NCBI GenBank assembly: GCA_050084515.1
Contig: CM114271.1
Span: 41,106,001 to 41,170,000, forward strand
DNA length: 64,000 nt
Source of the DNA: Blasia pusilla
Taxonomy: Eukaryota
Direction of reading: 5' to 3'
A model generated the notes under the pieces. The model saw only the letters and a program-made list of their open reading frames with translations, made no database searches and was not told the DNA's origin. The position numbers and the translations under genes were made by a program. Shown piece after piece: positions 187 through 60,984 of this stretch (within the stretch, counting starts at the first letter, position 1; every line of letters starts with the position of its first letter).

Positions 187-189
187 ATG

Positions 190-2650: not shown

Positions 2651-3073
2651 CTAGTAATCCAGGGAAAACCCCATCGGGTATAACACTGCTCCACCAACCA
2701 AGACGTTGTAGGACTCTACATCAGTCACTATCGCCTTAGCTTGCACCACGGACTCATCTGTAGGATGTCCCGGGCGAATCCTCACCACAACCTCCTTTTG
2801 GGTGATATGCTGTGTGGTACTCGCTCCACCCAAGGATGTCTATATACGCAATGGACAACGCTCCACATCGGCTCTCATCAAGCCCAATCCACTGAATGAC
2901 GCTTTCCCCAACATCAGGGGTTGCGCTCCTGAATCCAACAAGATGCGATGCAGACTAAAAGCTCTACCTTCGGGACTCACCAATTGGAAGACCTCTCCTC
3001 GGTTATCCGGAAACACAACACCAGAAGAAACCATGGCACGCTCTATCGCGGGTCTAGAGGGCATCTTCGCCAT
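2651..3073 (-). pseudogene. Retropepsin-like aspartic protease of element A
   Basis: RILLDSGAQPLMLG (DSG active site) followed by YNVLVGGAVL (flap/GxD-like region). Confidence 0.8.
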
Positions 3074-3399
3074 CCTAACAACCGCAACCTACCATGAATC
3101 TGACGTGGACGGCTCGAGCATCCGCTCCAAGGGCAGCTCCATCACCTCTAAACGTGATGCAGAAACTCCAACTCCACGCTCACATAGCGTAGTGGCCAGC
3201 GGAAAAGCCTTGGCGGGCGTACCTCCTAACGTCATAACATGGGAAGCACAAAATAAAGGAGTGTGGTACACAATGGTGGCCGCCCCCAACAAAGTGCTTG
3301 ACACATGCCTCTCTTGAGCATCAACAATAGGAGTCTTCGCACTCGCTTCTCCCATCGCCCTCCGTGCCTGCACACCAACAACATCACCAACTCTCTAGG

Positions 3400-4960
3400 A
3401 ACTCTGATCAGGACCCATCGATGGGGTCCTCATCGACTCGGACAACGAGAAAGACTGAGGAAGCCTAGTCTTTTGTGGCTTCTCCTCGCTGTGGATCCAA
3501 CTTTGCGGTTGCACCACGAGTCACAACTGCAACTACCTCCATCTGGGCAACCCCGCACATCCAACCATGATCCTCCATATCTCTGGCTGCTCCATATGAT
3601 GTCGATGCCACGGATCCAGCATCGGGTAATCCTAAATGCCATAGCGGAAATCTGATCCTGTAGCTGATGTTTCTTAGCAACCATCCTAGCCTCACGCTGG
3701 ACATCTCCCTCGACGCGTCTAGGTGGTAGGACTCTACCTCCTCCACGGGCAACTCCACCACCATGTCGGGCAACTCTAGCTCTTTTTCCCCCAACGGGAC
3801 CACTTGGTGCATGATCTCTAGGCCCACCCAGACTGGCTACCCGTTCTGGTGCCCTCTCCGGCCCTCCGTCCGGACGGAACTCTGGATGTAAATTGAAATA
3901 CCTGGTGCGTGCGTGACCATACCTCTGACAAAAGTCACACTGATAACCTCCTGGTGGAGCACCATCTCCTCCTCCATGCTAAGGCACACGTCCATGACCC
4001 TGACGAGTGCAATCGCGCTAATGATGGGCTCCACCACATGACCAACAAGTAATAGTAGGCGGCTATTGCAGAGCCGCATATGAAGGTGCAGGTCTTTGTG
4101 GTACTGCCTCCCGGTATCCTCCCTAAGCTCGTGGTGCCACAGTCGACCTATCTTGGAGTCCACGTTGCTGCACAGGTGGTGGAGCCAATCGTGACTACTC
4201 TCGCCCAGAACCCATGGTGGCTACGCTCTCCTCCGCCATGTTGTGCTCAATGTTCTCGGCGGTCCTAAAAACATCTCTCAAGTAGGGGAGGTGTTCATAA
4301 GAAGCACCCCTCCCGCACCCATGTCCGCAGGGTCCGGTCCAACATCGTGTACCATGATTGGATAGCGTGAGCTTCTGTCACCCCTTGAGTGACGTTGATC
4401 AACCGATGCAAGGGAGTGTAAGCCTCACGTAAACTCTCACCCGGGCGCCTATGGAAGTCGTGGACGCTTCGCAACTTCTCTGTCCGTACCCCTTGGTAGC
4501 TGGACCTCAACTCAACAAAGAATCAACCACGGGGTTGAACTTGGTACAAATCCGACTAGATGGTGCAACTGCTCTACTGCGAGTGACCCCTCCTAAAACA
4601 TCACTAGTGGAAGAGGAAGTAGCCTCTCCTCACTCCTCCTCCTTATCAAGGAACGGCTCCGTCCATGACACATAGTGTGGGTCATAGTGGAGTCCCCATG
4701 CCTCAATCTCCTGGGCATATCTGTGGGAGAACTCATAGTAATCGTCCATGGGCGCCCCCTATAAATGCTACAACATACCGTTCCATGCTGTAAACAGATT
4801 GAACTCTGTAGACTTCCTGGCTCGCTGGGAGTCACACAAACTCCCAAACTCTGCTATGAAATCATGCAACTCAATCGTGCCTACTGCACCTGAAAACCTA
4901 CGCGATCCTCTGCCCCGGTCGTCCATTTCGTATGCCCAACTGGTAGGACCAGTCACAATG
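3400..4960 (-). pseudogene. gag of element A with two zinc-knuckle remnants
   Basis: RRFSGAVGTIELHDFIAEF and RRPGESLREAY (gag MHR-like). Hand translation of ~3900-4050 gives CWSCGGAHH*RDC and CDFCQRYGH. Confidence 0.75.
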
Positions 4961-6776
4961 TGTGGTGATGTGGTGGTCCCTCACGTGGAGACCCTTGGAA
5001 CCTCGCGCCACTCTGCGTAAAACCCCTAGAGCTACTCTCAGGTTCACCACCTCGCCTCTCAAAGTCTCGAACGGACGCCGTGATGACCCTCGTGCCCCTC
5101 TCACCTGATTACTCTCAACCTTGTGAGTAATCCCTTAATCAGTCATCCCAAACATGCGGCACTCGATCTACACTGTCCCTCCCGGATATGTGTAACTTGC
5201 GGCAACATGCGGCGTGGTGTGGCAAATCGACAAGGCTATCATCTCATCAACAACCTACCCTCAACTCCGGACATCCCACACTGGTCTATGTCCCCTAAAC
5301 CACATATATGAATGATGCTCTCAGCATCCACACAACCCAATATCCCCAAATAAACTACCAAAATCCCAGAATCCCTCACACGTGCAGGGTAAAGAACCAG
5401 AATGGGTAACCTGAACACATGTCGATGTCGCTCCTCAGCAACTACAAATCTCGACCCTAACTCGGTCGTGAAGACAACTCCTCCAATCAACAAGTCGTAC
5501 TCCTCTCATACTGTCGCTGCTCAACCTCCTCGATCTGCGGTGCAGGTCGAGCAATTTAGTGTGGCACGGGCGGCACGGAACAACTACAAACAATACGATA
5601 CTTGGAAATGGGGTGCGGAACTTGCCGGCATACCCTCCTCAATCAACAATTCACACGCTCTGCTCCTTAGTGAAGGAGTGGTTCCGCGATCGAGATAGTG
5701 CGGTGCGGCCACGAGCGGCACGACGCAGCAATCGGCGGCGCGTTGCCGCTACGGGCATTATGGCATGGTACTTGATCGTCATCGAGCAGCTACCAATCCC
5801 AACATATCAACATGAAATGAAAACTCAAACACCATAACCCGAGATCACCTGCCATCACTGGTTAGAGACGAAATTGCGATGACGGTGGCGGCCAAACCAA
5901 AGTACGTGGTGGCGGCATAAGTCACATAATCTACGATGGACGTGGAAGACCCTCCACTCCATAATGGCGGCAATGGAAACCAAAGGGTGGACAATGGCCG
6001 AATGCGGCTATGAGCAGCGCTAGGCAACAACAATGGCCGACCGTGGATAGTGAACGGTGGACGGTTAACGGTGACGGTTGATCGTTGCTGGTGACGACGG
6101 ACCGTTGATGGTGATGGTTGACCATCGATGGTGATAGTTGACCGTTGACCATTGACCATTGACGGCGGACCATTGATGGTGACTCTGATGGCGGCGACGC
6201 CGCCGCCAGCCCGGCGGCTGGTTTAGGGTTTGAAGAATTTAACCCTAAACATCGCCTAACAATGGTAGTTTCGCAAGATTGACTATAACATTTTGCTCGC
6301 AATTCCAAATTGCACACCATTTATTGCACAGCCTGCACAACTTGAGGATCTACAAGAGCATCAAAAAATATTTGTAATCTAACATTCCAGTAAAAACTCA
6401 CCGGGACTGTCGTAAACCCAAATGTCTCTTTCTCATACACATAATTTGGTAGCGCTTCCGCGTTGATTTCTCCCAAAAAAACTGTAAAACATGTGAGAAC
6501 ATAAATCAGCAAGCTACATGGTGCTCCTGAGAGCACGGGTATGGGGAAACCCACCTCCATACTCAATCCCTATCAAAAATTGGGCAGCGCTTCCATGCGC
6601 CACTCTTCCACACGAAAAATCGGCAAAAGAAACATCACAAGTAAGCAGCTCCTGCTCCGGTGAGCACTCCCATGAACCGCTAAATGGGGAATATGATCCC
6701 CAGCCTGCAAAACTAGTGAGTGATCAGTGAGCTCCCCCATGAAGCTCTCTCACTCACTCATTCTCTCTTTGTATAA

Positions 6777-7275
6777 TAAGATCCAATCTCTCTCTATACC
6801 ATCTCACACCATAGCTCTCAAAGGTGTGCACTCTCTCTCATGTCAAACCAAACCCACTCTCCTAATGAGAGGCTTAGGTTACACTCACAAGGCAAGGGAC
6901 CATAGTTCTTATGCCAAGAGGTTCAACAAAGATAGAATGAGCTCTCAAGCTCTCTATCTTGGACGTATACCCCCTTCCCTATCCCAAGCCCTCTCAACGG
7001 TAACCTATGCTCGTAGGTCACCTCCTGGCTCTTGACCTACTGTAGCGGGTCAAGGCCACTTCCCAAAGTGGAAAGTCAACTATCTCCAACATGGAAACTT
7101 ACCCTAAATAGTAAGTTTATCTATATGGCTCCAAATGAGCCGAAACGAAGGGGAAACGTGCTCTATCAAGTTTCCCGGAGCCTCAACAGGTCATCATCAA
7201 CGTCCTGGGCATGTCCTCCACTACTTGTGCACACACTCTGCTAGATCCCACTAATCTACACTAACAATCGTAACA
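6777..7275 (-). repeat. 5' terminal repeat A (subfamily 1) of element A
   Basis: Begins TG and is homologous to 1-53 and ~53060-53460. It is followed by unique leader sequence rather than repeat B or a recognisable PBS. Confidence 0.8.
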
Positions 7276-8875
7276 GTCTTCAGTTTGTTGGATCTTCAAG
7301 CCAAATACCATCAGCTGCCTATCAGATTGGAGGACAAGTACAAGACGGCATTTTGGGGCATCAATCCTCACGGGAAGGATCGCTTGTACCAGTGGCGGTT
7401 CTTACTATTTGGGTTAAAGAACACCTAGATAAGTTTCAGACGGTCATGAATATGATCTTGGCAGGTCTGGATTTTGCTAGGTGTTATATTGATGACATCG
7501 TAGTCTTTATTGCCACGGTTGAGGAGGTGTTTTGACGATTGTAGTAACATGGGTTGAAGCTACATCTAGGCAAGTGCAAGTTCTTCTACGACCAGATTGA
7601 GTAACTGGGTCATACCATATACCCAGGTGGCCTTGGTGTGCAGTAGACAAAGATAGAGGCTATGTCATGCATTCCACGTCATACAGATGTGAGTCGAGTT
7701 CGTGCATTCATGGGATTGGCGCACTTCTATCGAAGGAATGTCAAGGGTTTCAGTTTGATTGCTAAGTCGTTGACCTTGCTGACCAAGGTGGATTAGGAGT
7801 CGTACCGGGGGATGAGCATTTTAGCTGCTCAAGGACCGATTGACGTCCGCGCCCATATTGAGGAGACCGATCAGTCCTCTCTAGATGCATGTCGTTTGGA
7901 GCATGTTGGGGCTTGGAGCCGTGCTCACCCAACATGACAATGAGGGTAGAGAGTTCATGGTGGCTTACGCTAGTTGCTCGAAAAACGTTGCGGAGGTGAA
8001 GTATAGCTTGTATGAGGGTGAGTGCTTGGATGTAGTGTGGGCTGTCATGCATTTCAAGTCTTATTTATTAGGAAACTCCTTTAGCATTATTACTGATCAT
8101 GAGCCACTTAAATGGTTGATTGAGTCCGACAAGCTTATAGGAAAGCTTACGAGGTGGGCTCTTTTGTTGAAGGAGTATGACTTCTAGGTGGTACATAGAC
8201 CTGGGACGCTCAACCAAGATGCAGATGGTTTGAGACGTAACCCATACCATAGTCAGCAAGATGAGATTGGAGCTTATTGGCATGAAGAGTGTGATGAGGA
8301 GTTGGTGCCAGGATGGCACGTGTGAGCCTATCGGGGCTTGTTGGCTATGGAGAGCTAGATTATCGAGACTTTGATGATGAGGTCTGATGGAGAGTCCTTA
8401 GATCCAAAGGTCGATGAGGAGATGACCGGTGGCCGAGATATTCACGATGATGGAGTAGTCTTGGAGTACCTGCGTAGTGCTAGCGTCGCGAGCACAGTGG
8501 ATGCTAGAGAGGAGGATTGGATCCTACAGTGACCAGACGGTTCCGGTGGGAGGGGACATATATGTTGCGAGTTTGGGAGGATGATAGAGTACGTGTAGTG
8601 CCTCATCCTTCTCACAGGGCGCGTTTGGTGCGTCATGCCCACAAGAGTTGGATCATTTTGGAGTGAAGCGGGCGTATAGCTTGCTCCAGGTATAGTATTG
8701 GTGGCAAGGCATGTAGACTGATGTTCAACAGTTTTTTGCCAGGTGCATGGTGTGTGATCGGGTCCGGGCATCATTCAATGCTCTGACTCCACAGTTGCAT
8801 CCACTTCCGATCATGGGTTTAGGTTATAGATGGATTTTGGATTTTGTAGGACCTTTACCTTTGATGGAGCTCCAT

Positions 8876-9874
8876 TGTCGCGCCCCTACTCTCCTTGAAC
8901 GTTAGTCTTTATTGTTGCGGAAGCGTACGTTCAATAGGACACGATCTCATCGCCGATTTGCACCCAAACACGCACTCTCGTTAGTCGGGTCTGGGCCAAC
9001 CAGCGTTCCAACCCACAGAGTTCTCAACTCGGCGTCTCATCAAGCTCAACCTTCCTTACTTCCTAGTTTCCAAAACATGGCAAGTTCTTCAAGACTTGGA
9101 ACAGACTTCTTGATTAGTCCAGGAATCTAAAATGGCACTTGCGTGCCTAGCGATCCCAATTGTTCAACGGATCTCGTGTGAGTTCCAAACCGAGACCCAA
9201 GTAATTGAGTTGCAGGGTGAAATCCAAGAGGGATGTCTAAAATTGCCTCCATAGACTTGGTTCAGGTTTTCCAACCCAACCCAAAACTCTCGGTCCATTC
9301 CATGCCCTTGAGCCGCCCCATGGCGCCCAAAGTGGGGTTCGAGTTCCAAGCACTCTCGGAGACCTTCCCCCTTACTAGTACTTTTGGGGTTCTCCAAACC
9401 CCCCCGTTTGGCAAAGGAGGGTCGGGCCCTTCGTGTGGCCCTCAACCCAACTCTACTAACAGTCATTTCCGGGTTTTTTCTCAGCCTCTGATTATGCGTT
9501 TGCAAAGATCTTTAGTGTGTTTGAACCGTCTTTCCATAAGTCTTCCAACGCACCCTTGTTTGATCCAAACGAATCTTGGCGCTAAAAGTTATGGCCATAA
9601 ATACAGTCGGAAACTCTCAAACGCTAATGGCGTTCCAAATCCGGATTCTTCCTTTGGCAACCCACTTCCTAGACTCAACTCCTTTCAAGTGTTGTTCCGC
9701 GTTTGGTCCAGGTTTCTCAATTGTAACCATAACATCTGAAACGCGAAGCCTTGCTTGTGTCTAGTCTCTTGTCTCTTCTTCGAGACCACTCCAACGCGTA
9801 GACCATCTTAGCGTGAGTGCGCTAATGTTCCGATGTTCCGCTTTGGCACTCGTTTGGTCATGAGGGTCGCGACA
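8876..9874 (-). repeat. 3' LTR of chromovirus
   Basis: TGTCGCG...CGCGACA, near-identical to 15241-16246. The adjacent purine tract (minus strand AAAGAGGGGTGAG) is at 9875-9887. Confidence 0.97.
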
Positions 9875-10563
9875 CTCACCCCTCTTTAGAGGTTGATGCC
9901 CTCATCAACGCAAACCTTTGTTATGTCAAGTCTCCTAGGTAGCCTACTCCTTGTCATTGAATTGCGTTCTGGTGGCTAATCCGCAATTCCTCTTAGTCTA
10001 TAGTTGTCGCTTTGCACCACTTAGAATTATTAGCCTCTCCTCTTTGGTAAGCCTGGACTGGTTCCAAAGAACTAAGCTATCAAATAAGCTAACTAAGCGT
10101 GCAACCTTAGACTCTTCTCGCTCACTCTTGTAAACATGACACCTGTTTACCTGGTCTACAAATCGTACTATTATTGCATCGCTCTCGCATTCGACTTGGG
10201 CGCGTCACTAATTTTACTTATGTAGCCACAAGTAAGATCACCCCAAGCCCCAAGATAGATTCATCTGCCCCGCCGACGCTAGGGCGAGCCCGAGTGTAAT
10301 CCAACACAAGGTCCTGTTCTAGGTGCTTATCCACATACAAGCTCTCACCTCAAATACTCCTTGTCTGTCCTCTTGACTTACATCCTAAGCTTATGATGAA
10401 CGACTCTTAGCCATGCACTACCACATAAAAATTGCAATCAACTCTGGCATCGAATCTCCAAATCCATACACTCCTTTATTGCAACACTAGCATATTCTAG
10501 TTATAACGGCCTTCGGCCGAAGATTCCAATGGGTACAAGTCATGTCTCTAGCTTCTCTTCGTA

Positions 10564-11995
10564 CTAACGTATCTGCTTCACTTGCGTTTGCTTGAAGTCT
10601 TGCAACAACTCTTGCGCATGTTCCAAATCCGCCTCCGCAATCCAAGTTGCCTCCTTCATATTGTAGCCCTTCCATTTAACCAAGTATTTGTACTTGTTGG
10701 CCCGACGCCTCGAACGTAAGATGGTCTCCATCTCAAACTCTGGCTCTTCATTTATGATCACCGAGTGCGGTCTCACCACATGTCTCCGCTCAAAACGTCC
10801 ATTATCTTGAAGATATTTCTTCAACAATGACACATGAAAGGTCGGGTGAATCTTGAACTCGTTCGACAGCCCCAATGTATACACATCCTCAAACGGGTTT
10901 GCCACAATCACATACGGTCCAACATACTTGGCAGACAACTTCGCAGAAAACTCTTTCGGAAAAGTGTGATTCTTCACACTCAACCACACTTGCTCTCCAA
11001 CTTGGAATTGTACTTGGCGCCGACTCTTGTTAGCATGCTTAACGTACCTCATTTGAACCTTTGCAAGACTTCGCCTTGCTCGCTCTTCCCGTTCTCGCAT
11101 TTCTACCAACAAACCTTCTGCCGTCGCTTGTCGTGTTCGTGCTAATGTAGTACCCTTCGGAAGGGCTAGGTCAAGAGGCCCTTCTGGCTTTCGTCCATTT
11201 TCCAGGAGAAAGGGAGATTCTCCAATTGCAGAATGCTTGGTCGAGTTGTAGCAGTACTCCGCCATGCTCAACCACTTGACCCAATCTTGTTGATCAGCAC
11301 TGACATAATTCCTTAAGCATTGATTCACGATTGAGTTTACCTTCTCAGTCTGTCCATCCGTCTGTGGGTGGAAAGTCGTATTGAAACTCAACTTGGTCTT
11401 AAACCTCCTGAACAAGTGCTTCCAAAAAGCATTGGTAAACTTTGGATCCCGATCTGAAACAATGCTCCTCGGAAAACCATGAGCACGCCACCAGTTATCC
11501 AGAAATAGTTGCGACGTCGTATAAGCCGTTGTGGAATCCACAGTCGACACGAACCTGGCCAACTTGCTAAACCGATCAACAATCACAAGTACAACGTTGT
11601 ATCCCTAGATTCCGGAAGACTCGTGATGAAATCCATACTCACACTTTGCAAGGGTACTTCTGAGATCGGCAAGGGATGCAGCAAGCCTTGTTTCTTATCA
11701 TAAGAAACTTTATTCGATTGGCAGGTCACACAGGTCTTCACATATTGAGCAACATCCTCTTTCATGTTGGGCCAAAAAACCGCTTCGACAGAACAGCCAA
11801 CCTAGATTTCTCTCCTTTATGTCCTGCCAAGGGTCCGTCGTGACACTCCGCTAACACTTTGGTTCGCATCCTGCCTTGCCCCACATAGATCCTACTCTGC
11901 TTGAACCTTAGTAAACCGTGCCTCAAACTTATGTAGGCCACCTTCTCACCCTGCTTCAACTTCCTCAGGTACTCCCATGTGTGAGCGTCCTTCAT
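10564..11995 (-). pseudogene. Integrase with GPY/F motif and C-terminal chromodomain (frameshifted)
   Basis: HDGPLAGH..CVTC zinc finger, SMDFITSLP, IVSDRDPKF, HPQTDGQTE, KYVGPY, HPTFHVSLLK; chromodomain FEMETILRSRR..KYLVKWKGY..EATW. Confidence 0.95.
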
Positions 11996-12048
11996 ATATC
12001 CTTAACGAATCCTTCTTTCTAGGTCTGTTTCTTTAGGGAACATTGCTC

Positions 12049-14163
12049 TCAAAGACTGTGTCGTCGATGCATGTGTTCCTCCTTGCGACTCAACGCATCT
12101 GGAATCACATTATCTTTACCTGGTTTGTGAATCAACTCAACATCCATCAGCGCCAAGGTATCATGCGATCGCAGTTGTTTCGGTGTCACTCGATCCTGGG
12201 TCTCAAAACACTTGAGTGATATATTATCGGTGAATACTCGAGTCTTGTGGAGCCCTAAATAATGCCACCACTTCCTCAAGCAATGGACCACCGCGAACAA
12301 CTCTTTCTCGTGAGTGGGCCATCTCCTTTCAGTATCGCTAAGCTTCTTGCTCTCGTATGCTATAGGTCTCCCTTCTTTCACCAACATTCCTGCAACTGCA
12401 AAATCACTAGCATCGGTATGCACTTCAAAAGGTTTGTCAAACTTTGGGAGCTTCAATACTGGTTCTTGCAATAGAATCTGCTTCACTCGGCTGAGTGCCT
12501 CATTAACTTCCTGGGTCCAAGTCATGTTGGCAAACTTTGCTGTCCAATCCGTGAGAGGTCTCACAATTCCCAAAATTTTTTTCACATAAGTGCGATAGAA
12601 CTGCACCGCACCTATGAACCTCCTCATCCCCTTTACGGTGGATGGGGGTTCCCACTTGACAATCGCTTTCACCTTCTCCATGTCCGGACTCACGCCATCT
12701 GCACTAACCAGATGACCCAAGAATTTGATCTTGCTCAACCTGAAGTCACTCTTCTCTATATTCGCATACAGCTGATTCGCCCTTAGCTTTGACAAAACCG
12801 CTCTCACATGCCGAGTGTGCTCCTCTAAGGACTTTGAATAGATAAGTATGTCATCAATATAGATAATAACATACTCATCCATTTCCTAGTAAAAAATGGA
12901 GTTCATCAATGTGGTGAACGTCGGAGGCACATTACACAAACCGAAAGGCATCACTACAAACTCAAAGGAACCGTATCTTTTCCTACACACAGTCTTCTTC
13001 ACATCTGCCTCGGCAATCCGGATCTGGTAATATCCTGACTTCAAGTCTATCCTTCTGAAATATCTCGCGCCTGCCAGCCTATCGAAGAGATCATCTATCC
13101 TCGGAAGAGGATAATTGTTCTCAACCGTCACTTTATTCAACGCACGGTAATCAACACATAGCCTCATCTTTCCATCCTTCTTCTTCACAAAAAGAACAAG
13201 TGCTCCATAAGGTGATTTGCTAGTCCTAATGTAACCCTTTTCCAACAGCTCACTTAACTGCCTTTTCAACTCAAGAAGTTCCTCCTCCTGATTCAACCTA
13301 TATGGTGCTTTTGAAGGTGGTTGGGAACCAGGTATGATCTCTATCTTATGGTTGACGGCTCTATATGGCGGCAACTCAGTCGGAAGCTCATTTGTCAAGA
13401 CATCCTCAAACTCCTTGACCACTTCTTGGAGTGGTTCTGGGATCCCTCTTGAAGCAGTGTCTTGATCTCTACGTATTCTGCTTGTAGCCTCCTCCACTTG
13501 TCTCAACAAGCAGAGAAACCCATTCTCCAACTCAGTCATGCTTCTCCTTGTAATCGAGTTCACTAACTCCTTTTTCGCTGGAATCTCACGGACCAACTGC
13601 TGCAACCGTTTTCCTTTTAGCAAGACGCTCAACCTCAAGGGTCTATGTCTTAACTCCACCTCATACGCATCTAGGAATGTATTCCCCAAGACTCCGTCAA
13701 TGCCATCCATTTCGCACATAGTGAAATTCTCCTTCAACTCGAATACCCTGCATCCTACGATCAACCCCAAGACCAACTCAGAAGTCCGATGAGACTTGCC
13801 TCTTGCAAATCCTACTCGAATGGGCTCATCCTCCTTAGAGGTAGACAACCCCAGTTCCTTCATGATTCTCAGGCTTACGAAGGAGTGCGAAGCACCTGTA
13901 TCCACGAGCAACAACACATCGCGATCAGCAATCTTGGATCTTAAGTACACCAAATTGTGTGTCCTCTTGGTGACCTGAAGGGATGTCTCAAGATCACCCG
14001 CCAATAGATGCTTAGCAGAAAACTCAATCATACTCCCATTACTAACCTTCAGTTTCAAACACACTTTCGCCCGGTGCGGCCGTTTGCCACAGTTGTAGCA
14101 TATGACCTTGCCGTTCCCTGACTTTGAGTGCTGTCCTCCTCTCGGCTTTGCATGAAGTTCCAC
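12049..14163 (-). pseudogene. Zinc knuckle-protease-RT-RNase H of chromovirus pol (stop near 12885)
   Basis: [78 protein letters not shown]. Confidence 0.95.
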
Positions 14164-14999
14164 TCATTTCTTTTGCCGAGGCGGCGACTCTCTGGATTGT
14201 GCAGGCCCCCACTCCAAACTCTTTTGAACGTCTCCTTATTTTTCGACTTCTTCGAAAAACCTTTTGGCTCAAAGGGTTTCTGGGTTTGGACTTCATCTTC
14301 CCCAATCCGCTCCTCTAGCTTCAGAAGATCCGTGCAGGTATCCGGCAATGTCGGCATTCGGTAAAGGGCCTTTTCAGCGCTTGGCTTGAGTCCACTAATG
14401 AAGATAGCCTTCTTCGCGTGCTCATCCATCTTTGGAAGAGAAGTCAGTTTTGCACTAAACTCCCTCACATACGCGCTTAAGGAAACACTGTGTCGCATCT
14501 GCACCCATTCCACCGCGTTGCACAACCCTTGGTACTCCGGAGTGAATTGATCACCAATCAACACCTTAAACTTCTCCCAACTCAGAGGTGACTCGCCGGC
14601 CAGATATTCCTCTCGTTGAGCTATCCACCATTGTAACGCATGATCCTTCAGGAAAGTAACGGCTACCGTCACCTTGTCCTGCTCAACTGCCCTATGCGCC
14701 TTGAAGTACAGTTCCAGTTCCTTAAGGAAATCCTTCACTTTCCGCAAGCGCCCCATCCCAATGAATGGCGTGGGCAGGTTTGTCTTGCAGAGCTTTTTGC
14801 CCACACCCAAAGTTCGAGTGGCCTCTAACTCTGCAATCCGCTTGCTTTGCTGGGACAACTGCTCTACCAACAACTTCAACAAGTCCAACGTCTGCCTTGA
14901 CTCAGTCGGTTCCCCTGGGTTTGGGCCCGATGGCCCCGTGGAAGGATTTGCCTCTGGAACGTCCTCACGTCTGGCGTTCACCTCTTTGGAAATCTCCAT
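14055..14999 (-). CDS. Chromovirus gag (capsid), frameshifted relative to the zinc knuckle/pol
   Basis: 314-aa ORF with Ty3-type gag motifs ([32 protein letters not shown]) directly downstream of the PBS. Confidence 0.85.
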
Positions 15000-15226
15000 C
15001 TCCTCTATACATCACGGTTCGGCATTGGTTCCTCTCTTGATTCACGTCGCTTGATTCGGCGCTCCTTGGGTGTTTCTCCCTCGATCACCATTTCCAAGCC
15101 AACTCACTCAGATCTCCTCCTCGTTTCTTGCGTCTCTCCTCGAGCGTATGAGTCTAGCCGCTACCTTGAGTTTTCCCAAGAGTCCGGTTGATCCCACGAC
15201 CCCAACTTCTCGCTCACCAAGGATTA

Positions 15227-15238
15227 GCTCTGATACCA
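15227..15238 (-). promoter_or_regulatory. Primer binding site for initiator tRNA-Met
   Basis: Minus strand TGGTATCAGAGC, 2 nt inside the 5' LTR. Confidence 0.95.
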
Positions 15239-15240
15239 CT

Positions 15241-16246
15241 TGTCGCGCCCCTACTCTCCTTGAACGTCAGTCTTTATTTTTGCGGAAGCGTACGTTCACT
15301 AGGACACGATCTCATCGCCGATCTGCATCCAAACACGCACTCTCGTTAGTAAGGTCTGGGCCAACCAGCGTTCCAACCCACCGAGTTCTCAACTTGGCAT
15401 CCCATCAAGCTCAACCTTCCTTACTTCCTAGTTTCCAAAACATGGCAAGTTCTTCAAGACTTGGAACAGACTTCTTGATTAGTCCAGGAACCTAAAACGG
15501 CACTTGCGTGCCTAGCGATCCCAACTGTTCAACGGACCTCGTGTGAGTTCCAAACCGAGACCCAAGTAATTGAGTCGCGGGGTGAAATCCAAGAGGGATG
15601 TCTAAAATTGCCTCCATAGACTTGGTTCAGGTTTTCAAACCCAACCCCAAACTCTCGGTCCATTCCATGCTGCCCCATGGCGCCCAAAGTGGGGTTTGAG
15701 TTCCAAGCACTCTCGGAGACCTTCCCCCTTACTAGTACTTTTGGGGTTCTCCAAACCCCCCCCCCCCCTCCCCCCCGTTTGGCAAAGGAGGGTCGGGCCC
15801 TTCGTTGTGGCCCTCAACCCGACTCTACTTACAGTAGTTTCCGGGTTTTTTCTCAGCCGTTGCTTATGCGTTTGCAAAGATCTTTAGTGTGTTTGAACCG
15901 TCTTTCCATAAGTCTTCCAACACACCCTTGTTCGATCCAAACGCATCTTGGCGCTAAAAGTTATGGCCATAAATATAGTCAAAAACTCTCAAAGGCTAGT
16001 GGCGTTCCAAATCCGGATTCTTCCTTTGGCAACCTTCTTCCTAGACTCAACTCCTTTCAAGTGTTGTTCCGCGTTTGGTCCACGTTTCTCAATCGCGACC
16101 ATAACATCTGAATAGCGAAGCCTTGCTTGCGTCTAGTCTCTTGTCTCTTCTTTGAGACCATTCCAACGCGCAAACCATCTTAGCGTGAGTGCGCTAATGT
16201 TCCGATGTTCCGCTTTGGCACTCGTTTGGTCATGAGGGTCGCGACA
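15241..16246 (-). repeat. 5' LTR of chromovirus
   Basis: Direct repeat of 8876-9874 with scattered substitutions and small indels. Confidence 0.97.
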
Positions 16247-17423
16247 GCCATAGTCGTTATGTGTTGGTGATGGTCGAGCAATTCTTGAAGTGAATAGAGT
16301 TGGTTGCATTGTTTGACAAAGCGAGTGAGGGAGTAGCGTATGCCTTCCTAGATCGGGTGCTAAGTCATTACGGCGCACTAGCTGAGGTGTTGACAGACAA
16401 GGGTACAGAGTTTTGCCGGGAGTTTCAGGCCTTGTGTGATGAGGCGTTGATCGACCACAACACCACTTTGCGAGATCATCTTGAGGCGGATGGACTAGCG
16501 GAGAGGGTTGTGCAAACGGTGAAGAGAGGATTGTGCAAGTATGGCTTGCAGAAAGGTTACCTAGGATATTGGGACCTCCATTTTCCATGGTTGGCGATGG
16601 GATATAGATTCAGCAAGCATGCATCTTTAGCGTAGTTTTCACCGTACTTGCTACTCTATGGCCGAGAGCCAGATTTACGTACGGCCATTCGTCGAGATGT
16701 TGGTGAGGTGTTGAACCTTGATGACCCTGATGTATGGATGCGAGCATGTTCTCAGAGGGCTGAGTTGTTTCGGAGAGTGATGCCCATGGCATTTGAGAAC
16801 TTGGCAATTACGTAGCATCGAGATACATTGAGTTATGCGATTCTTCGAGGAGGTGGTTATCGACCTACAATCCGGAGGTTCCACCAGGGAGACTATGTCT
16901 ACTTGCAGAAAATGACATCCATGACATTTGATGTGATTGCAGGGCGCACTATATTGAGAGTGCGTGAGGTTTTGCCATCTTGTGTTCTTTTGTTGGAGGG
17001 ATGCGATGGTATGGTGTGGAAGGACCATGTGCGTAATTGTGCGCCATGTCACCTTCCTAATATGGATGATATCGTAGATCCGAGCTTAGCAGTAGTTACT
17101 ACATGCTTGCAATACATGTTGTGAGGTTCTGCCCCTCGTGGAGCCACTATGCTAGTTTATGATGGATGTTCGAAAGAATCGCATATGGCATGTTTGACGC
17201 CCACTTGTTACTAGGGTTCCTCAGGGACGATGGATGTTTACCAAATATACATAGAGTACGTAGTTCTAGATTTCGACTTGTCTCTATGACATGGATGACA
17301 AGAAGGTGACAAACGATGGGGTCACATGAGCACTCGAATTTTTTGCTCTTAGCGTCCGAGAGATGTATGTCATGGTAGGTAGGGATAGATGGTTATCTGG
17401 AGTTAGAGAGACCTAACCACCAG

Positions 17424-17562
17424 CTAAGGGGGCGATTGGAGATATTTCGGTACTTCTCGTCTCGTTGTTTGGATGCCATGAGTTAGCATGGGATCGTGTG
17501 TGTTTGTGTATATGTTTGGTGATAGCAATGTATGTTGTGTAGCGATGTGTATGCGCATGACA
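17424..17562 (+). repeat. PPT-like tract plus short 3' repeat B (subfamily 1) of element B
   Basis: CTAAGGGGGGCGA followed by ~126 bp matching 59-186, ending GACA. Unrelated AT-rich DNA follows. Confidence 0.8.
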
Positions 17563-37832: not shown

Positions 37833-39584
37833 AAGTTACATTTTACTACGGGTCGTTGCCTCATAGGCTCACGGTACCCGCCGTGCTCTCTGGGCACACC
37901 GGCCCGCTCTCGTGGTACTGGTGCTCGCTGTGGCACCTGTGGGGTCACCGTTGCTCGTGGACCCGTCGACTCTTGAGAAAATCCAGCGGTCACTACCTGC
38001 TCCTCACTCATGTTGAGCTCAATACGCTCAGAAAACTCAAAGATCACCTTTAATGTGGGCTTCGCTGTGTGAATCAGGACCGCATCTCGGACTCTCCTTC
38101 GTAGTTCTAGGTCCAGAACCCCGTACCAATACTGGACTGACTACGCCTCAGTCACTCTATACGTAGCAATGATTAGCCTCCTCATGTGTGTGAATGCCTC
38201 TCTTAGACTCTCACCCGATTGTCGCTGAAAATCCTGTAGACTCTTCAGCTTGTCGGTGCGTATGCCTTGGTACCTCTTCCCCAACTGTCGGAAGAACTCC
38301 ATTGTGGGGTTGAAGCTCGGTGGCCCTCTACCACCAAAGGTCTCTGCCACATCGCCTGTCTCACTGCCCTCCTCTCCATCTAGTCGTCGGGCTGATGGTG
38401 TGGGTCTCTATCCTCTCACAATCCCATAATATGCCTCGCGACCACTAGTGGACACATACCCTGGAGCCCAATACATCCTCCAGGCATCGATCTCTACTGA
38501 ATATAGTGATCGGAACTCCATGTAGTCATCCATTGGAGGACCCTCCAAGTGTTGGAACAACCCCTTCCTTGCCATGAAAGGGTTGAACCGTGTCGGGGTC
38601 CGTATCTCCTAGAAGTCGCACCACGCTTCGAACTCCTGGATAAAATCATCTAAGTCCATGGTGCCCACTGCACCCGAGAAACGACGCATGCCCCGATAGC
38701 CCATGTCGTCCATCTCCTGCCAAGTACTACTGTCTCTGTCTGCGATCTCGTCACTAGACCCAGTGTCTAGTGATGACGATCCAGCCACGGATGGATGTCG
38801 AGGTAGCTCCTCACTGGTAACCCCTCGGTATCTCACTCCACTCCATGTCACACCACTACCACTGCTAGCACTACCCCGTTCTTCCGAACCCTGGAAGAAC
38901 GCCGTGATGACAAACCCTGTCTCACTCGCTCAAGCACTCAGACTCACCAAGAGTCTCCCACACTCCTCACTAGCTCACCTATGCTAACATCAATCCCGTG
39001 ATGACATACCCGGCCTCACGCACACTCAACACTCGGGCTCACCATGAGCCTCCCAACTTACTTACTAACCTAGCAACACTCTCGGGTCATACATGCGACC
39101 CCTACGCGGCAACCGCCGTATATCCACCAACATGCTACACATGAAAAGAATCTACACTCGTCACCATCGCTGCACCCACCTAGCACCAACTACTACTCGA
39201 TACCCAGCACTCTCAATCACACACGACAAGTGGGGAAAAGGGACTCAAATGGGTAACCTGGTCACTCCCGCCAATCAACTGCTTCATCAACACTCACTCC
39301 TCCATGTGGCTCGGAAACCTCCGCAGCACAACCATCTCCCCTCACAACAAGTCGATCCTCCCGTCACCGGGTGCAGACCACTTGTCGACATCAACACACT
39401 AACTCTCCATCGTCAACCCATCGGTGCAGAGGGTACATCTTGACCCCAACCATGTAACTCTACTCAACCATGTCGTAGCTCTTACCACATATGTCGCTCA
39501 ACCTGATAGCCCGCCTATCACGTTCATCCTATGCACCACGTCCAAAGTTCCAAACACGTCGGCCTAGACTTGGTAAGCACGCTT

Positions 39585-40150
39585 GCCACGTCCATTCTTC
39601 AGACCCGCTCTCCCAACTTCACAGGCTCGCGGCTTTGTACTACGGCTACTCCTTCCTCGTGTGGGCGCGCCTGTACCTCCGCCGGCGGCGAAGAAGACAC
39701 ATATCTACAGTCGACTACACGAGGGACACATCTTCATCCCCCTGGCCATAGAGATGTATGGGGCTATGGGGGAGAGGTTCGACTTCGTTCTCACGGATCG
39801 CGCCCATCATCTCCACTCGAGAAATGGGTTATCCTTAGCTAGCTCGCGATTCAGACAGGCAGCTGGTCTCCATAGCGTTGCAGCGTGCCCAGGCTAATGG
39901 GATTTTGCGGCGGGCTCAGGCTGTGGGAGACGCCGGCGCTAGAGGCCCACTTAGTAGTAGTCATAGCTCTCTTGTTGTTGCTGATATTGTCTCTGCTGTT
40001 GGTGAGTTTCGTCGTTAAGGGGGGGAATGCCCCCTTCTTCCTTTGCTGGTCGTGTTGTGGCCTTCAGGTTTTGACTCTTTGAGTCCCCCTCTTTTGTACT
40101 TCCGATGGGTTTTCCATCACTCATTTTTATCGAAGTGCATCTTTGTTTTT
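39585..40150 (+). mobile_element. 3' fragment of a CRE-like non-LTR retrotransposon (restriction-like endonuclease C-terminus) within the leader of element C
   Basis: AAKKTHIY..FIPLAIEMYGAMG followed, after a frameshift, by QLVSIALQRAQANGIL. These match the KxxKY..FxPxxxExxG and SxxLQRxxA motifs of RLE elements. Confidence 0.7.
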
Positions 40151-41037
40151 CTTAACAGCACGGCTCCCTGTGGAGCTCCCTCTGAACCCACATACTTTGG
40201 AGCCATAATGGCTCTACATAGTGCCCTATGCAGGCTTGGACCTTGCCACTCCCGTATTCACTCTATCTCCCCCGCTTCTCGAGACGCAGCCCTTCTGCTC
40301 CCGACTCCCCTCACATTCACTCCTGCTCCCACACTCCCTTAGGCATGCGGTCCTATGCAGGACCTTCCTACTGCCTTATTCCTCTCGCACGCCGCCCTAT
40401 GCGGCTTTGTCCATACTCGCGCATACGGCTCCCTATGGCGCAGGGCCCCCCTCCTTAAATGCGCGAGGGCCCTATAGGCCACTCCCGCTCAATCCACCTT
40501 CTCCATGCTGCCTGACGTGGCCTTATATGTGCACGTAGTCCCTATGGAGGGACTCTCCCCTGTCTGACTACCTTTACTGGCGGCTGGCCGTCCTATGCGG
40601 CTAGCCCTGCCTCTATTCGCGTTACTCCCTAGCTTCCTCCCGACGCACCCGCTTCGATTGCGACTGTACTACTGATCGCGCACATATAATCTAAACCTAA
40701 CTCAAGACTAGCGGCTACAACCTAGCTCTCCTGGAGGCTACCATATTCTTGCCCTAACCTTCTCTCTTCCCATTTTCCAACCCTCACGCTCACCCATCCA
40801 TGACACTCTCGTGACCACCCGTGGTCACAACCTGCGTTGCACTCTATTCCTATCCCCCGTCAACCCACACCAAGGAGATCTAAGAAAAATGGACAGCGCT
40901 TCCGCGCACAACCTTCCGAACAGAAAACAACACACAAAACGTCACACACACGTCTCCAGGGGCTCCTCAACCGAGGCAACTCGCTTGCCTACTTGCAAAC
41001 AACGAATTCCCACAACCCCCTGACATCTTTCTCATAT

Positions 41038-41466
41038 AAAAATAAAGAGTAGTAAAAACGGCACACTTGGCCTAAAACTCCACTCCTCAATATACATCGA
41101 CATATCGAGCCTCGTCCACCCTGTGCTATCAAGGAATCCGGAGGCTAGCACCCTAGTCCTATCTCACACACATATAAGAGAGGTGCTCCAACGCCCAACA
41201 TGAGAAAGATGGCTTAGGAAAGCCACCTTCCTCTCTTATATAAGGTTGGGAAGAGCCAAAAGGCTCTTCCCCTAAAAATAACCCTCCCCTTGGTAACCTA
41301 CGCGCACAGGTTACCAGGGGCGGGTGATCTGGTCAACAAGTCACCCGGTTGTGAAAGACCTCAACATGAAAGTTCCTGACACAATGGACCTATCCTCAAC
41401 CTAGTCCCCTGGCTCTTACGCCCTATCCACGATAGATCTCAGCCTATCGGCTACTCAGATGTGACA
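41038..41466 (-). repeat. 5' terminal repeat A (subfamily 2) of element C
   Basis: Near-identical to 56554-57034 apart from small deletions, and contains a TATATAAG box. Confidence 0.9.
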
Positions 41467-44385: not shown

Positions 44386-44574
44386 GACGGTCCATGGACG
44401 TGTCTGCACTTTTTCTGTCCATGTCCGCCCTAGAAGCAGACTTGTCCATTTTTTATCAACCATGTTAATCTGGGTACGGGCGTCAATTTGCCCTTGAGCA
44501 ACTAAAATGTTCCCTCTTACTTATCTCTCCACTGCCAAACATGATCCATCTTGATCAGGAATCAAACTAAATCC

Positions 44575-56416: not shown

Positions 56417-57185
56417 TGTCGTGCGCATACATATCGCTACACAACATACATCGCTAGTCACATCTACACCACACAACGCCGATCTTCCCCACACACGGGT
56501 CGATCCACACATGTACAAAAATCAACTCATACATATACATGGAGATCACACAACAAAAATAAAGAGTAGTAAAAATGGCACACCCGGCCTAAAACTCCAC
56601 TCCTCAATCTACATCGACATATCGAGCCTCGTCCACCCTGTGCTATCAAGGCATCCGGACGCTATCACTCTAGTCCTATCTCACACACATACAAGAGAGG
56701 TGCTCCAATAGCCCAACATGAGAAAGATGGCTTAGGAAAGCCACCTTCCTCTCTTATATAGGGTTGGGAAGAGCCAAAAGGCTCTTCCCCTAAAAATAGC
56801 CCTCCCCTTGGTAACCTACGCGCACAGGTTACCAGGGGCGGGTGACCTGGTCAACAAGTCACCCGGCTGTGAAAGACCTCAACATGAAAGTTGACAGAAA
56901 TGACGTTCTTGACACAATGGACCTATCCTCAACCTCGTCCGACACCGTGGGACAAAGTTACACTCAAGATAGTCCGCTAGCTCCTATGCCCTATCCACGA
57001 TAGATCTCGGCCTATCGGCTACTCAGATGTGACAGCTGTCGTGCGCATACATGTCGCTACACAACATACATCGCTGGTCACATCTACACCACATAACACC
57101 GATCTTCCCCACATACGGGTCGATCCACACATGTACAAAAATTAACTCATGCATATACATGGAGATCACACAATCGCCCCCCTAG
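56417..57185 (-). repeat. Split direct repeats: PPT-like 57174-57185, B1 57037-57173, gc, A2 56554-57034, B2 56417-56553
   Basis: B1 and B2 are 137-bp near-identical direct repeats. A2 matches the 5' end of element C. The B1|A2 junction reads GACAGCTGTC. Confidence 0.9.
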
Positions 57186-57250
57186 TTGGCAGTTGGATCC
57201 CCCCAACTCCAGATAGAAAATATCACATCTCTCTAACATGACCTACTACC

Positions 57251-57410
57251 CTATACACCTCTCGGACACATCCATCGTCCTGTGGGAACCACATCAAGAG
57301 GGGGGATCAAACATGACATATGCCACCCTTGAGAACAACCATCACATACCAATATGGTGGCTGCACCCCTCGCAGATCCGCACAACATACACCTCAATCC
57401 TGCAGGTACC
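57251..57410 (-). pseudogene. PHD finger at the integrase C-terminus
   Basis: CMLCGSARGAATILVCDGCSQGWHMSCLIPPLDVVPTGRWMCPR fits the C4HC3 PHD pattern; the last Cys is lost or frameshifted. Confidence 0.92.
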
Positions 57411-57920: not shown

Positions 57921-58562
57921 CTATAGGTCCCACTCCCTCAACTCTCCCCGCTGCAAGCCATACTTGCGCAATCCTCTCTTCACCGTCTGTACCACTCTCT
58001 CCGCCAACCCATCCGCCTTAGGATGATCTCTGGACGTGGTGCAGTGATCTATCAGCGCCTGATCATACAAGGCCTGAAACTCTCCCCTGAACTCGATACC
58101 CTGGTCAGTCAACACCTTCGTCGGTGCACCAAAGTGACTAAGCACACGATCTAGAAACGTATAAGTTGTTCCCTTGCTCGCCTTTTCTGGTAGTGCCACC
58201 AACTCTATCCACTTGGAGAAATGCTCCACCATGACCAACACGTACATATGATGACGCCCCATCAATGGCAAAGGTCCCGCAAAGTCTAAACTCCACCGAT
58301 AACTTAAACCCATAATCGGAAAAGGATGTAATTGCGGAGTGGGAGCATTGAAGGATGCTCGCACTCTGTCACATACCATACATCTGGCCACAAATTGCTG
58401 TATCCCAGTATGCATGCCGCGCCACCAATACTGAACATGGATTAAGCTGTAACTACGCTTTACTCCAAAATGTCCCAACTCCTCATGGGCATGTCGCACT
58501 ACACGTGCTTGCTCGGAAGGATGAGGTACCACTCGTATCCTACCATCTTCCCATACCCGCAA
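57921..58562 (-). pseudogene. DDE (rve) integrase core of element D
   Basis: HEELGH..CMVC zinc finger, WSLDFAGPLP, VLTDQGIEF, HPKADGLAERVVQTVK. Confidence 0.95.
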
Positions 58563-60984
58563 AATGTGAGTCCCCTCCCACCTGAACCTCCTGGCTCTCT
58601 GAAGGATCCGATCCCGCTACCTAGCACTCAATGTACTCGCTATGACGCGAGTGCGCAAGAACTCCACAACCTCCACGTCGTCATGGATATCACGACCACC
58701 TGTCGCCTCCTCACTAACCTCCGGATCGAAAGACTCATCATCCAACCCCACCACTGGAGTCATCACCTGTGGTTGACCTGCCATAGTCAACCAACAAAGA
58801 TAGGCAGATACATGCCAATCGGGCACCATCTCCTCATCACTCTCTCCGTGCCATTGAGCTCCTCTGCCGTCTCTCTGACTCGAACATGGGTTATGACTAA
58901 ACCCATCCGCATCTTGGTTCAGCCAACCTGGCCTATGAAACACCTCAAACTCATACTCCTGTAGTAATAGAGCCCACCTGGCAAGCTTTCCCGTAAGCTT
59001 GTCGGACTCCATCAACCACCTCAACGGCTGATGATCAATGATAAGTGTGAAAGGGTTTCCGAATAAATAGCATCTGAAATGTGCCATGGCCACACTCCAG
59101 CCAACCACTCTCCCTTGTAGGAGATGTACTTCGCCTCTGCAATGTTGTTCGATCGGCTTGCGTAAGCCACAACGAACTCCCTCTCCTCGTCATCCCTCTG
59201 AGTAAGCAGTGCTCCTAGACCCAACATGCTCCAATCTGTATGTAAATGGAATGGGCGACCCCTGACCGGTCTCTGTAAAATTGGCGAGGACGTCAACCTG
59301 TCCTTGAGCTCCTGAAATGCTCGCTCATGATCATCTCCCCACAACCAAACCTGATCAAGTCTCGTCAACAAGGTCAAAGACTTTGCGATCGCACTAAAAC
59401 TCTTGACATACCGTCGATAGAAGTTCGCCAGTCCAAGAAATGCTCAGACTCGACTCACATCTGTAGGGTGTGGAATCTACGCAATAGCCTCTACCTTCGT
59501 CTGCTGAACGCCTAACCTACTCGGGTATATGGTGTGTCCCAAATACTCAATTTTCTCCTGAAAGAATCTGCACTTGCCTGGATGTAACTTCAGTCCATGT
59601 AACTGCAATCTCCGAAATACCTCCTCCACGTGTATCATGCTCCTCAACCGTGGAACTGAAGATAAGAATATCATCTATGTAACATTGTACAAACTCCAAG
59701 CCAGCTAGAATTCTATCCATCACTCTCTAAAACTCTGCATGCGCGTTCTTCAACCCAAATGGTAAGAACCGCCATTGATACAAGCAATTTCTCCCGAACC
59801 AATCTATCCCCTAGAATGCTGTCTTCTCCCTGTCCTCCAACCTAATAGGAAGGTGATGATAGCCAACACGGAGATCTAAAGTACTGAAGATCTTCGCATG
59901 CCCTACTGCATCAAAGATCTCCTCAGGAGTAGGCATGGCGTACCGATGTGACCTCGTCTATCAGTTGATAGGACGGTAATCTCCACACATCCGCCTATCT
60001 GTCTAATTGCCATACATATCCTTCTTCGCCGGCATGACTGTGGCAGATGCATACTCCCCATGTGATAACTCCACAAGTCCTGCCTCCAACAAGTCCTGAC
60101 TCTTGCTCTGAATCAAGGCTCGCTCCATATCCGAATACATGTAGGGACGACCAAAGATCGGCGTATCACTAGCCAACTCAATCCGTATCCTGGGACCCTT
60201 CAGCGTACCCAAGTCTCTCATACTGAAGGAAAAACAACTGACATGCCCTCTCAAAAACCTATGAGCTCGCCGTCGCTCTCCTCCTATCAACTTGAGACCT
60301 ATCACAGGCTCCCAAGTCTCCATCGCGACCTCATTCTGAGAGGACCCAACCTCCGGCTTTGGTTGCTATATAGCAACCCTAGCCACCTCCACAAGAACCA
60401 CTCCACTTTAACCTCCTACACCATGCTCCGCATCTGAAAAATGAACATGTTCTACTCTAGCCGCCTTCGCACTCTGCTCAAACGACGTCCCAGGAAGTCC
60501 ATGGGTGCCTATCTCTCCTCGTCTCGCCCCCAGCCAATGCCTGTATAGACCCTGTACGCAATGGTCCAACTCGTGGACATGACGACATAGATGACACTCG
60601 CATCCATCTTTGCTCAGCCATACCTAGGCTGACTATCCATGTGAGACAGTTGAGGTCCATCGCCTGTCCCAACACCTGTCTCCAGGATGCCTCAGTCATC
60701 CCTGGCACCGCCGTAGTATCGGTAGCGAACCCCATGGCGCGCTCGCGCTCATCTACTGTAGGCTCCTCCAATGCGCCGGTCACCTCCACGTGGTGGAAGG
60801 CAAGGCAAGGACAAGGAAGAAACGTAAAATTGCGTAAGATGGAGGCAAGTAAGAGGAATGAGAAAGAAGGGGAAGGTGGGGCCTACATGGATAAGTCCTT
60901 CCAAAGGACGGACGTATGCCCGCGAACACGGACTTTGTCCATATGCAACCTTGTAGATTAAGGAAACCTATATATCATGGGGCA

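Follow-up and report, generated by a model that had tools for sequence, protein, structure and literature searches.

The window analysed here, a stretch of 64,000 nucleotides of Blasia pusilla DNA (assembly GCA_050084515.1, contig CM114271.1, positions 41,106,001 to 41,170,000), contains at 56417-57185 the 3' end of a retroelement, termed element D, which carries split direct repeats. In the sense of D, which runs on the minus strand, a G-run is followed by a short repeat (B1), the dinucleotide GC, a long repeat (A2), a second copy of the short repeat (B2) and unrelated flanking DNA (Table 1). The two B copies share 94.9% identity over 137 bp (E 9e-58). Upstream of the G-run, the same strand encodes a PHD finger, the H2C2 zinc-binding domain and DDE core of an integrase, RNase H and reverse transcriptase (RT), which identifies the repeats as the 3' end of a Gypsy-type element. 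Residues 51-931 of P0010 map to 60347-57702 of D by tblastn, and the match is collinear over 60347-57260. The 5' end of D lies outside the window. Within D, and opposite to it in orientation, lies an RNase H fragment of the family (60934-61280, plus strand), so that D is rearranged or holds a nested fragment there.

Further copies of the family were resolved by whole-window self-comparison, pairwise comparisons, Pfam scans and tblastn. They fall into two subfamilies that share the architecture, with D and the 5' fragment X in one, and E1, E2 and a solo A-B unit in the second. In both E1 and X, unrelated DNA lies upstream of A, and A is followed not by B but by a leader that starts without a TGG-type primer binding site (PBS). 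At the 3' ends of E2 and D a polypurine tract, visible as a G-run, precedes B; in D this B is followed by A and a second B, and no A-B follows the B of E2. Direct joins of A to B are present at 1-186 and ~53035-53586. In all these respects, the coordinates and content agree with the original prediction, which had assembled from several copies the layout A1-internal-B1-A2-B2 on a DDE-integrase element. All window copies carry stop codons and are decayed and nested, and no single one retains both ends, as had also been stated; complete copies exist outside the window.

Table 1. Features of element D and of the other family copies in the window (coordinates in the window; arrows give the direction of motifs read on the minus strand)
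Feature	Position	Strand	Remarks
Polypurine-type tract of D	57174..57185	-	sense CTAGGGGGGCGA; putative plus-strand primer site; G-run 57182->57177, then CGA
B1, first short-repeat copy of D	57037..57173	-	137 bp; directly 3' of the G-run; starts TTGTGTG, ends ACGACA
Spacer GC between B1 CA end and A2 TG start	57035..57036	-	centre of palindrome GACA-GC-TGTC
A2, long repeat of D	56555..57034	-	480 bp; starts TGTCAC at 57034; matches 41038-41466
TATA box within A2	56760->56753	-	sense TATATAAG
Predicted RNA 5' segment within A2	56729->56718	-	motif coordinates
B2, terminal short repeat of D	56417..56553	-	137 bp; ...ACGACA end at 56417, then flank
PHD finger, C-terminal end of D integrase region	57260..57391	-	Pfam PF00628, E 4.1e-10, residues 98-141 of ORF 57254-57682
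D integrase, H2C2 zinc-binding domain and DDE core (rve)	57924..58616	-	PF17921 E 6.9e-15; PF00665 E 8e-14
D RNase H and RT region	58620..60347	-	stop codons inside; Pfam RT_RNaseH/RT_RNaseH_2; tblastn of P0010
A1 of 5' fragment X	41038..41466	-	TG start at 41466; 409/480 aligned columns match A2 of D
TATA box in A1 of X	41242->41235	-	motif coordinates
Predicted RNA 5' segment in A1 of X	41211->41200	-	partner of X primer binding site
Self-priming primer binding site of X (predicted)	41024..41035	-	sense ATGAGAAAGATG; 2 nt past A end; complementary to 41211->41200
X leader (~2.1 kb) and start of gag-like frame	37833..41023	-	truncated at 37833; tblastn
E1, second subfamily	187..7233	-	A ~7233->6775, leader ~1.8 kb, gag-like frame, DNMT remnant 1695-1961, RT 573-911
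End of another copy, inserted into E1	1..186	+	A tail joined directly to B; B ends ACGACA at 186
E2, second subfamily, 5'-truncated	7276..17562	+	nested chromovirus inside; 3' end GGGGGCGAT, B 17435-17562, flank
Chromovirus nested in E2 integrase	~8876-16246	-	gag, protease, RT, RNase H, integrase, SH3_Tf2-1, chromodomain
E3	~44083-48804	-	copy of the same family
Solo A-B unit, second subfamily	~53035-53586	+	left edge uncertain by a few bases

The integrase open reading frame (ORF) of the window has 105 homologous proteins at E <= 1e-10. The closest named relatives come from liverworts, with three Calypogeia fissa proteins at 77-79% identity and Riccia sorocarpa at 76%, followed by Sphagnum and then by two proteins of Klebsormidium nitens, at 50-53% over the integrase. 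A PHD finger follows the integrase in 79 of the 105 homologues; in the window family it occupies the position at which chromoviruses have their chromodomain. A C5 cytosine methyltransferase (DNMT) domain is present in four homologues, among them K. nitens P0043, which carries PF00145 and is 50% identical to the window integrase. The same domain is recognizable in E1, which also carries RVT_1. Its stop-broken remnant there (minus strand) scores 30.3 bits against PF00145 (cutoff 22, E 3.6e-07), and E1 aligns by tblastn to the DNMT region of P0043 (residues 313-565, with 41% identity across 253 residues) and to the corresponding part of P0019 (residues 30-350). DNMT homology, to proteins of Klebsormidium and of metagenomes, extends more widely over 1284-2246 (-) and is also found at 60628-60771 (-) in D and 45818-46269 (-) in E3. 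Moreover, PF00145 lies upstream of RT in a metagenome copy, L062 (7284-7940, E 4.3e-08), whose family is 49-55% identical to the window integrase, and thus the DNMT domain and the split repeats travel together in more than one family.

The pol order RT - RNase H - DDE integrase, of Ty3/gypsy type, was seen by Pfam along both D and E2. Pfam was run on stop-to-stop ORF pieces, among which short ones could be missed. The tyrosine recombinase family PF00589 had no match in any scanned ORF, a set from which ORFs below ~90 residues were mostly left out. X and the 5' part of D matched zero Pfam families, and their homology came from tblastn only. The window family is a Ty3/gypsy-type lineage of streptophytes whose pol combines DNMT, RT, RNase H and DDE integrase domains and has a PHD finger at its C-terminus. 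Its protein sequences suggest a relationship to KnitGypsy-Dnmt3 of Klebsormidium.

A scan of metagenome contigs with an integrase alignment yielded 600 matched stretches, 512 of them relatives, of which the best 80 were kept; these comprise 71 non-redundant loci, whose integrases share 49-76% identity with that of the window. Their 3' ends were classified by self-comparison and by BLAST mapping with A and B of two families, and two loci with split or overlapping matches (L045 and L030) were reassigned by hand to the class in which B leads into A. Among the 71 loci, 23 have B-A-B after the integrase, two have B-A and then either another feature or the end of the contig, 19 have B followed by flank, one has B at the contig end, two are odd in having A-B without B1, and 24 show no B with the two-family queries. 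The last group mostly has little sequence 3' of the integrase or belongs to other families. In four of these 24, from more divergent families, a G-run and then B are still visible by eye; L026 and L031/32 continue through a 2-nt spacer into an A start of the TGTCA or TATCA type, and L043 and L065 continue into flank. Odd 3' ends were seen at L033 3321-3602, L053 6281-6745 and L064 4373-5305, two of them A-B without a prior B1 and one B-A followed by an inverted B.

The integrase is thus followed by B-A(-B) in 25 of the 71 loci. Eight copies are complete, four of the form A-internal-B-A-B (L008, L060, L062 and L072) and four of the form A-internal-B (L011, L024, L057 and L080). The window copies alone, all decayed and nested, could have come from an ordinary element with long terminal repeats (LTRs) composed of A+B, either through deletions or through a solo LTR inserted beside B1. 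This reading is now refuted for practical purposes: the layout recurs in those 25 loci from at least two families, with integrases 49-74% identical to that of the window, besides the more divergent ones, and target-site duplications (TSDs, described below) flank A1 and B2. Intact copies with A+B at both ends, the case named in the original prediction as speaking against it, did not turn up; B precedes A1 in none of the nine non-redundant metagenome 5' ends, and equal repeats occur at both ends of no locus in the metagenome set. These results confirm that the A...B-A-B layout is a property of the lineage and not damage.

The ends of the integrated element were defined on the complete metagenome copies. 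In four of the eight, the TG that opens A1 and the CA that closes the last B are bordered by perfect 4-bp TSDs (AAGG in L008, ATAA in L072, TACA in L011 and CCAA in L080). In addition, the TSD of L062 agrees at three of four positions, and L024 has one (TGTG) only when its first TG is taken as mutated. The integrating unit is therefore shown to run from the TG of A to the CA of B with 4-bp TSDs, the mark of a DDE integrase, and the layout proposed from the window fragments is borne out by complete related copies.

Within the element, exactly 2 nt (GC, AC or AT) separate the CA of B1 from the TG of A2 in each of the 21 related loci with a B pair, as well as in D, and a G-run abuts B1 in the same 21. 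Together with the terminal inverted repeats, the B1-NN-A2 joint forms a palindrome of the GACA-GC-TGTC type. The internal joint is hence shown to consist of two element ends abutted in a CA-NN-TG palindrome. The A pair and the B pair are similarly diverged within each element (92.1 and 93.8% identity in L008, 90.1 and 92.3% in L062, 86-87 and 87.5% in L072), a pattern expected of repeats that were identical within each pair when the element inserted. Differences of 1-3 nt at the A2/B2 joint among close relatives were considered as a sign that this joint re-forms in each cycle; they were discounted, as slippage in an AT repeat is possible.

These data also bear on a reading in which A-internal-B, lacking terminal repeats, is the basic form and the B-A-B array arose from a small non-autonomous A-B element lying in tandem behind it. 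Copies of the A-internal-B form with TSDs do exist (L011, L080 and probably L024), and solo A-B units are present in the window. However, a tandem insertion predicts a TSD of its own, yet the joint is invariably 2 nt, and a single TSD encloses the whole A...B-A-B unit in L008 and L072. The nearly equal divergence of the A and B pairs also disagrees with it, and an element devoid of terminal redundancy would offer no acceptor for self-primed strong-stop DNA. We regard this reading as very improbable and close to refuted.

Analysis of the 5' ends revealed an unusual priming arrangement. A tRNA-type PBS starting with TGG follows A in none of the 11 5' ends, both window copies included. Instead, the leader opens with a short sequence, conserved within each family, that is perfectly complementary to a segment inside A, with A ending 0-2 nt before a complementary stretch of 11-16 nt. 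The paired stretch is 16 nt in L008, 12 nt in L060, 11 nt in L062 and 12 nt in X, and none of 300 shuffles matched or exceeded it in any of the four; for the 9 nt paired in L080, six of 300 did. The paired sequences vary between families yet stay complementary. In L062, L060, L080 and X, the partner segment is preceded at ~30 nt by a TATA box, and L008 has only a degenerate TATGAAG at this distance. Taken together, the complementarity and its position downstream of the TATA box support tRNA-independent priming, as originally suggested, by an arrangement of the Tf1 self-priming type with a predicted RNA start inside A. The missing TGG-type site would then be explained by a self-priming site in its place.

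Transcription was assessed by placing, at 90% likeness, the reads of three RNA-seq runs labelled with the same species. Over 56308-60600 the depth is ~3-33 with the first mate on the plus strand versus 0-9 with the first mate on the minus strand; in most stranded libraries, the former corresponds to RNA in the sense of the element. The reads span B2, A2, B1 and pol; in A2 they also cover sequence that precedes the TATA box. Junction reads passing from B1 through GC-TGTCA into the A of another subfamily numbered 35, 58 and 43 in the three runs, which indicates that transcripts of the family continue past B1 into A2. The near-identity of B1 and B2 makes DNA contig joints within B uninterpretable.

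The integrated form thus reads TSD - A1 - PBS/leader - gag-pol - G-run - B1 - NN - A2 - B2 - TSD. We favour, as moderately probable, an account in which the element makes a self-primed cDNA with B-NN-A repeats, and the genomic copy is that cDNA opened at an internal palindrome. The RNA would begin inside A, and its 5' end would fold onto the primer binding site and prime the minus strand as in Tf1, whereas the G-run would prime the plus strand. As the right edge of A is the PBS edge and the left edge of B is the polypurine-tract edge, the two-jump scheme gives B-NN-A at both cDNA ends; the PBS edge of A holds in A1 and at the A2/B2 joint, and the polypurine edge of B holds in B1 and at the A2/B2 joint. 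Reverse transcription would accordingly yield a cDNA with the terminal repeat B-NN-A as its LTR-equivalent. The integrase would then act on the internal palindrome, and not on the cDNA tips, so that the genomic copy would equal the cDNA with its left B shifted to the right end.

The order A-internal-B-NN-A-B is exactly a circular permutation of (B-NN-A)-internal-(B-NN-A) opened in the upstream repeat, and an end-joined form of the 2-LTR type, or a circle, opened at the palindrome of that repeat would give the genomic layout. Judged from its two edges, the A/B joint looks like two cDNA tips joined together. From the fit of these parts, we infer the step of palindrome opening. Copies of the A-internal-B form might derive from a deletion between B1 and B2 or from permutation of a one-repeat circle, and solo A-B units from a deletion between A1 and A2 or from the small piece between two palindromes. 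The original prediction had placed the split repeats in the stead of LTRs. The integrated copy is indeed permuted, but its polypurine and PBS edges define B-NN-A as an LTR-equivalent. The circle-based route that it had suggested is, like one through an end-joined intermediate, a possibility compatible with the anatomy.

Several observations weigh against the account. Neither circular nor linear cDNA has been observed. A circle with two palindromes should also yield the permutation A-B-A-internal-B, which is found in none of the nine non-redundant metagenome 5' ends and neither of the two in the window, so an unexplained asymmetry is required. TSDs are absent from two of the eight complete copies (L060 and L057), and A2-B2 is missing from 19 of the 44 assessable 3' ends. 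The leader pairing is not significant in six of the 11 5' ends (L011, L024, L072, L057, L074 and E1), all of them decayed. At 90-95% likeness, the RNA reads come from other copies of the family, and the transcription start, end and poly(A) site are unreadable from them. Finally, the window copies, all broken by stop codons, give no evidence of present activity of their own.

Alternatively, replication might follow a DIRS/Ngaro-like route, in which terminal sequences absent from the transcript are restored with the B1-NN-A2 joint as template or splint, A2-B2 is copied from RNA in every cycle, and the DDE integrase inserts a linear A...B-A-B cDNA. Such a route accounts well for a repeat order identical to that of PAT, Ngaro and VIPER elements, and for RNA reads that pass B1 into A2 and cover both A2 and B2, and it explains the absence of A-B-A-internal-B with no extra assumptions. 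However, a tyrosine recombinase was not found and TSDs are present. With a PBS after A1 and a polypurine tract before B1, the standard two-jump scheme gives B-NN-A and leaves B2 uncopied, and no strand-transfer path ending in the right-hand A-B could be drawn up. Furthermore, the left edge of B2 coincides with the polypurine edge and the right edge of A2 with the PBS edge, as in joined cDNA tips. We therefore consider this route rather unlikely.

Returning to the opened, self-primed cDNA, we tentatively extend the account, as a possibility of lesser probability, to a whole streptophyte Gypsy lineage, from charophytes to bryophytes and in many members with DNMT and PHD domains, that would make a self-primed B-NN-A cDNA and integrate it, once end-joined or circular, via a palindromic att site in its interior. 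If so, integration from a circle junction, long abandoned as the main retroviral route, would be obligatory in a living lineage, and these elements would link LTR elements mechanistically to the split-repeat layout of DIRS/Ngaro.

The remaining copies in the window illustrate the nesting and decay of the family. Minus-strand frames of X at 37835-38929 match E1 at 4087-4977 (tblastn, E down to 4e-15) as well as D at 61807-61905 and E3 at 48631-48804. X is bracketed exactly by a 633-bp direct duplication of AT-rich host DNA (37200-37832 and 41466-42098, 98% identical), which resembles either an outsized target duplication or the outcome of aberrant insertion at one end with subsequent repair. 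E1 is interrupted at 187 by the end of another copy; in the latter, 59-186 is 86.7% identical to 17435-17562 in E2, and 1-58 matches the end of the A of E1. The chromovirus nested in E2 has LTRs of ~1 kb that are 92.9% identical and end in TGTCGCG...CGCGACA, and is flanked by a CCAT duplication. The solo A-B unit has AAAC on its left and AACA on its right, at best a three-of-four TSD match given the uncertain left edge of A. Immediately 5' of it lies a 36-bp near-perfect palindrome with 17-nt arms and a 2-nt centre (53001-53036). Between E3 and the solo unit, an isolated integrase fragment of the family is found at 50875-51245 (-); it adjoins one copy of an 89-bp repeat (33576-33664 and 51315-51403, 96.6% identical).

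Split direct repeats have been regarded as a hallmark of tyrosine-recombinase elements, and here they occur in many copies on DDE-integrase elements with TSDs, in land-plant-type hosts. The polypurine tract, self-priming site, TSDs and CA-NN-TG palindrome make integrase action at an internal site of joined ends a testable claim. They also outline a specific way in which an LTR element could give rise to the repeat layout of DIRS/Ngaro. LTR finders look for two equal repeats inside a TSD. They would mis-bound or drop these elements, and the lineage is thus likely under-annotated in bryophyte and charophyte genomes.

Among known elements, the window family resembles KnitGypsy-Dnmt3 of Klebsormidium nitens (de Mendoza et al. 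2018, PMC5890265), which is described in the legend of Fig. 1e as combining DIRS-like repeats with Gypsy domains. As described there, KnitGypsy-Dnmt3 has a Gypsy-type pol, a C5 cytosine methyltransferase domain and repeats like those of a DIRS retrotransposon, all of which recur in the window family. The two differ in host, a charophyte versus a land plant, and in the PHD finger that follows the integrase of the window family; Pfam found none in P0043, a record labelled partial. The passages of PMC5890265 available to us give no TSD, junction anatomy, priming site or mechanism for KnitGypsy-Dnmt3; relative to that published text, the CA-NN-TG joint, the B directly after the G-run and the complementarity between A1 and the leader are new. 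Hence the layout is not unprecedented, a related element with the same DNMT domain having come before; beyond PMC5890265, a second description of Gypsy-type elements with split repeats was found nowhere in the openly searchable literature, a search that left subscription journals, Repbase Reports and supplements outside. As far as the accessible text goes, the window family is a land-plant-type case of a kind of element noted once in print for a charophyte, and it adds bryophyte-type hosts to the range of DNMT-carrying Gypsy elements, reported before for Klebsormidium.

The order A1-internal-B1-A2-B2 is shared with the DIRS-order elements PAT, Ngaro, VIPER and TOC3/TOC1. These split-repeat elements encode a tyrosine recombinase, whereas those of the window lineage encode a DDE integrase, end in TG...CA and are flanked by 4-bp TSDs; DIRS elements are described as lacking TSDs (PMC8969392). 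Compared to canonical Ty3/gypsy elements, the lineage keeps the pol order, short TSD, TG...CA ends, polypurine tract and a PBS, albeit of the self-priming and not the tRNA kind, but departs from two equal LTRs, with A only at the 5' end and B-NN-A-B at the 3' end. Phygy and Selgy are likewise non-chromodomain Ty3/gypsy elements of early-diverging land plants, and in the text of PMC6317226 at hand they are short, with a polyprotein that nearly fills the internal part, and Phygy has the target NCGN. Compared by description, the window lineage differs in its leader of ~1.8-2.1 kb and in its TSDs, as AAGG, ATAA, TACA and CCAA all fail to fit NCGN. Troyka, an animal Gypsy-like group, had been named in the original prediction as pairing split repeats with a DDE integrase. 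This does not hold: the available text of PMC12440569 gives ordinary LTRs, CG...CG termini and 3-bp TSDs, does not describe split repeats, and uses "split" solely for the storage of Repbase entries. Troyka shares with the window lineage, which has TG...CA ends and 4-bp TSDs, its Gypsy-like type and the possession of unusual termini.

The priming arrangement has its counterpart in Tf1/Sushi and plant Tcn1 elements, which also lack a tRNA-type PBS and have, next to the 5' repeat, a sequence complementary to the predicted transcript start. In Tf1 self-priming, the 5' end of the RNA folds onto the primer binding site and primes the minus strand. Self-priming has been predicted for most plant Tcn1 elements, according to the consulted part of Neumann et al. 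(PMC6317226). Where Tf1 and Tcn1 combine ordinary LTRs with a chromodomain, the window lineage combines split repeats with a PHD finger. In retroviruses, 4 nt separate CA from TG at LTR-LTR junctions. The junction of a retroviral 2-LTR circle resembles the window joint in being a palindromic CA...TG sequence that integrase can cut internally, and cleavage of palindromic LTR-LTR junctions by integrase is described, in the portions available, for foamy virus (PMC1180852) and HIV-1 (PMC1905944). However, the retroviral joint occurs only in unintegrated circles, as a side route, whereas that of the window lineage is fixed, with its 2-nt spacer, inside every full genomic copy.

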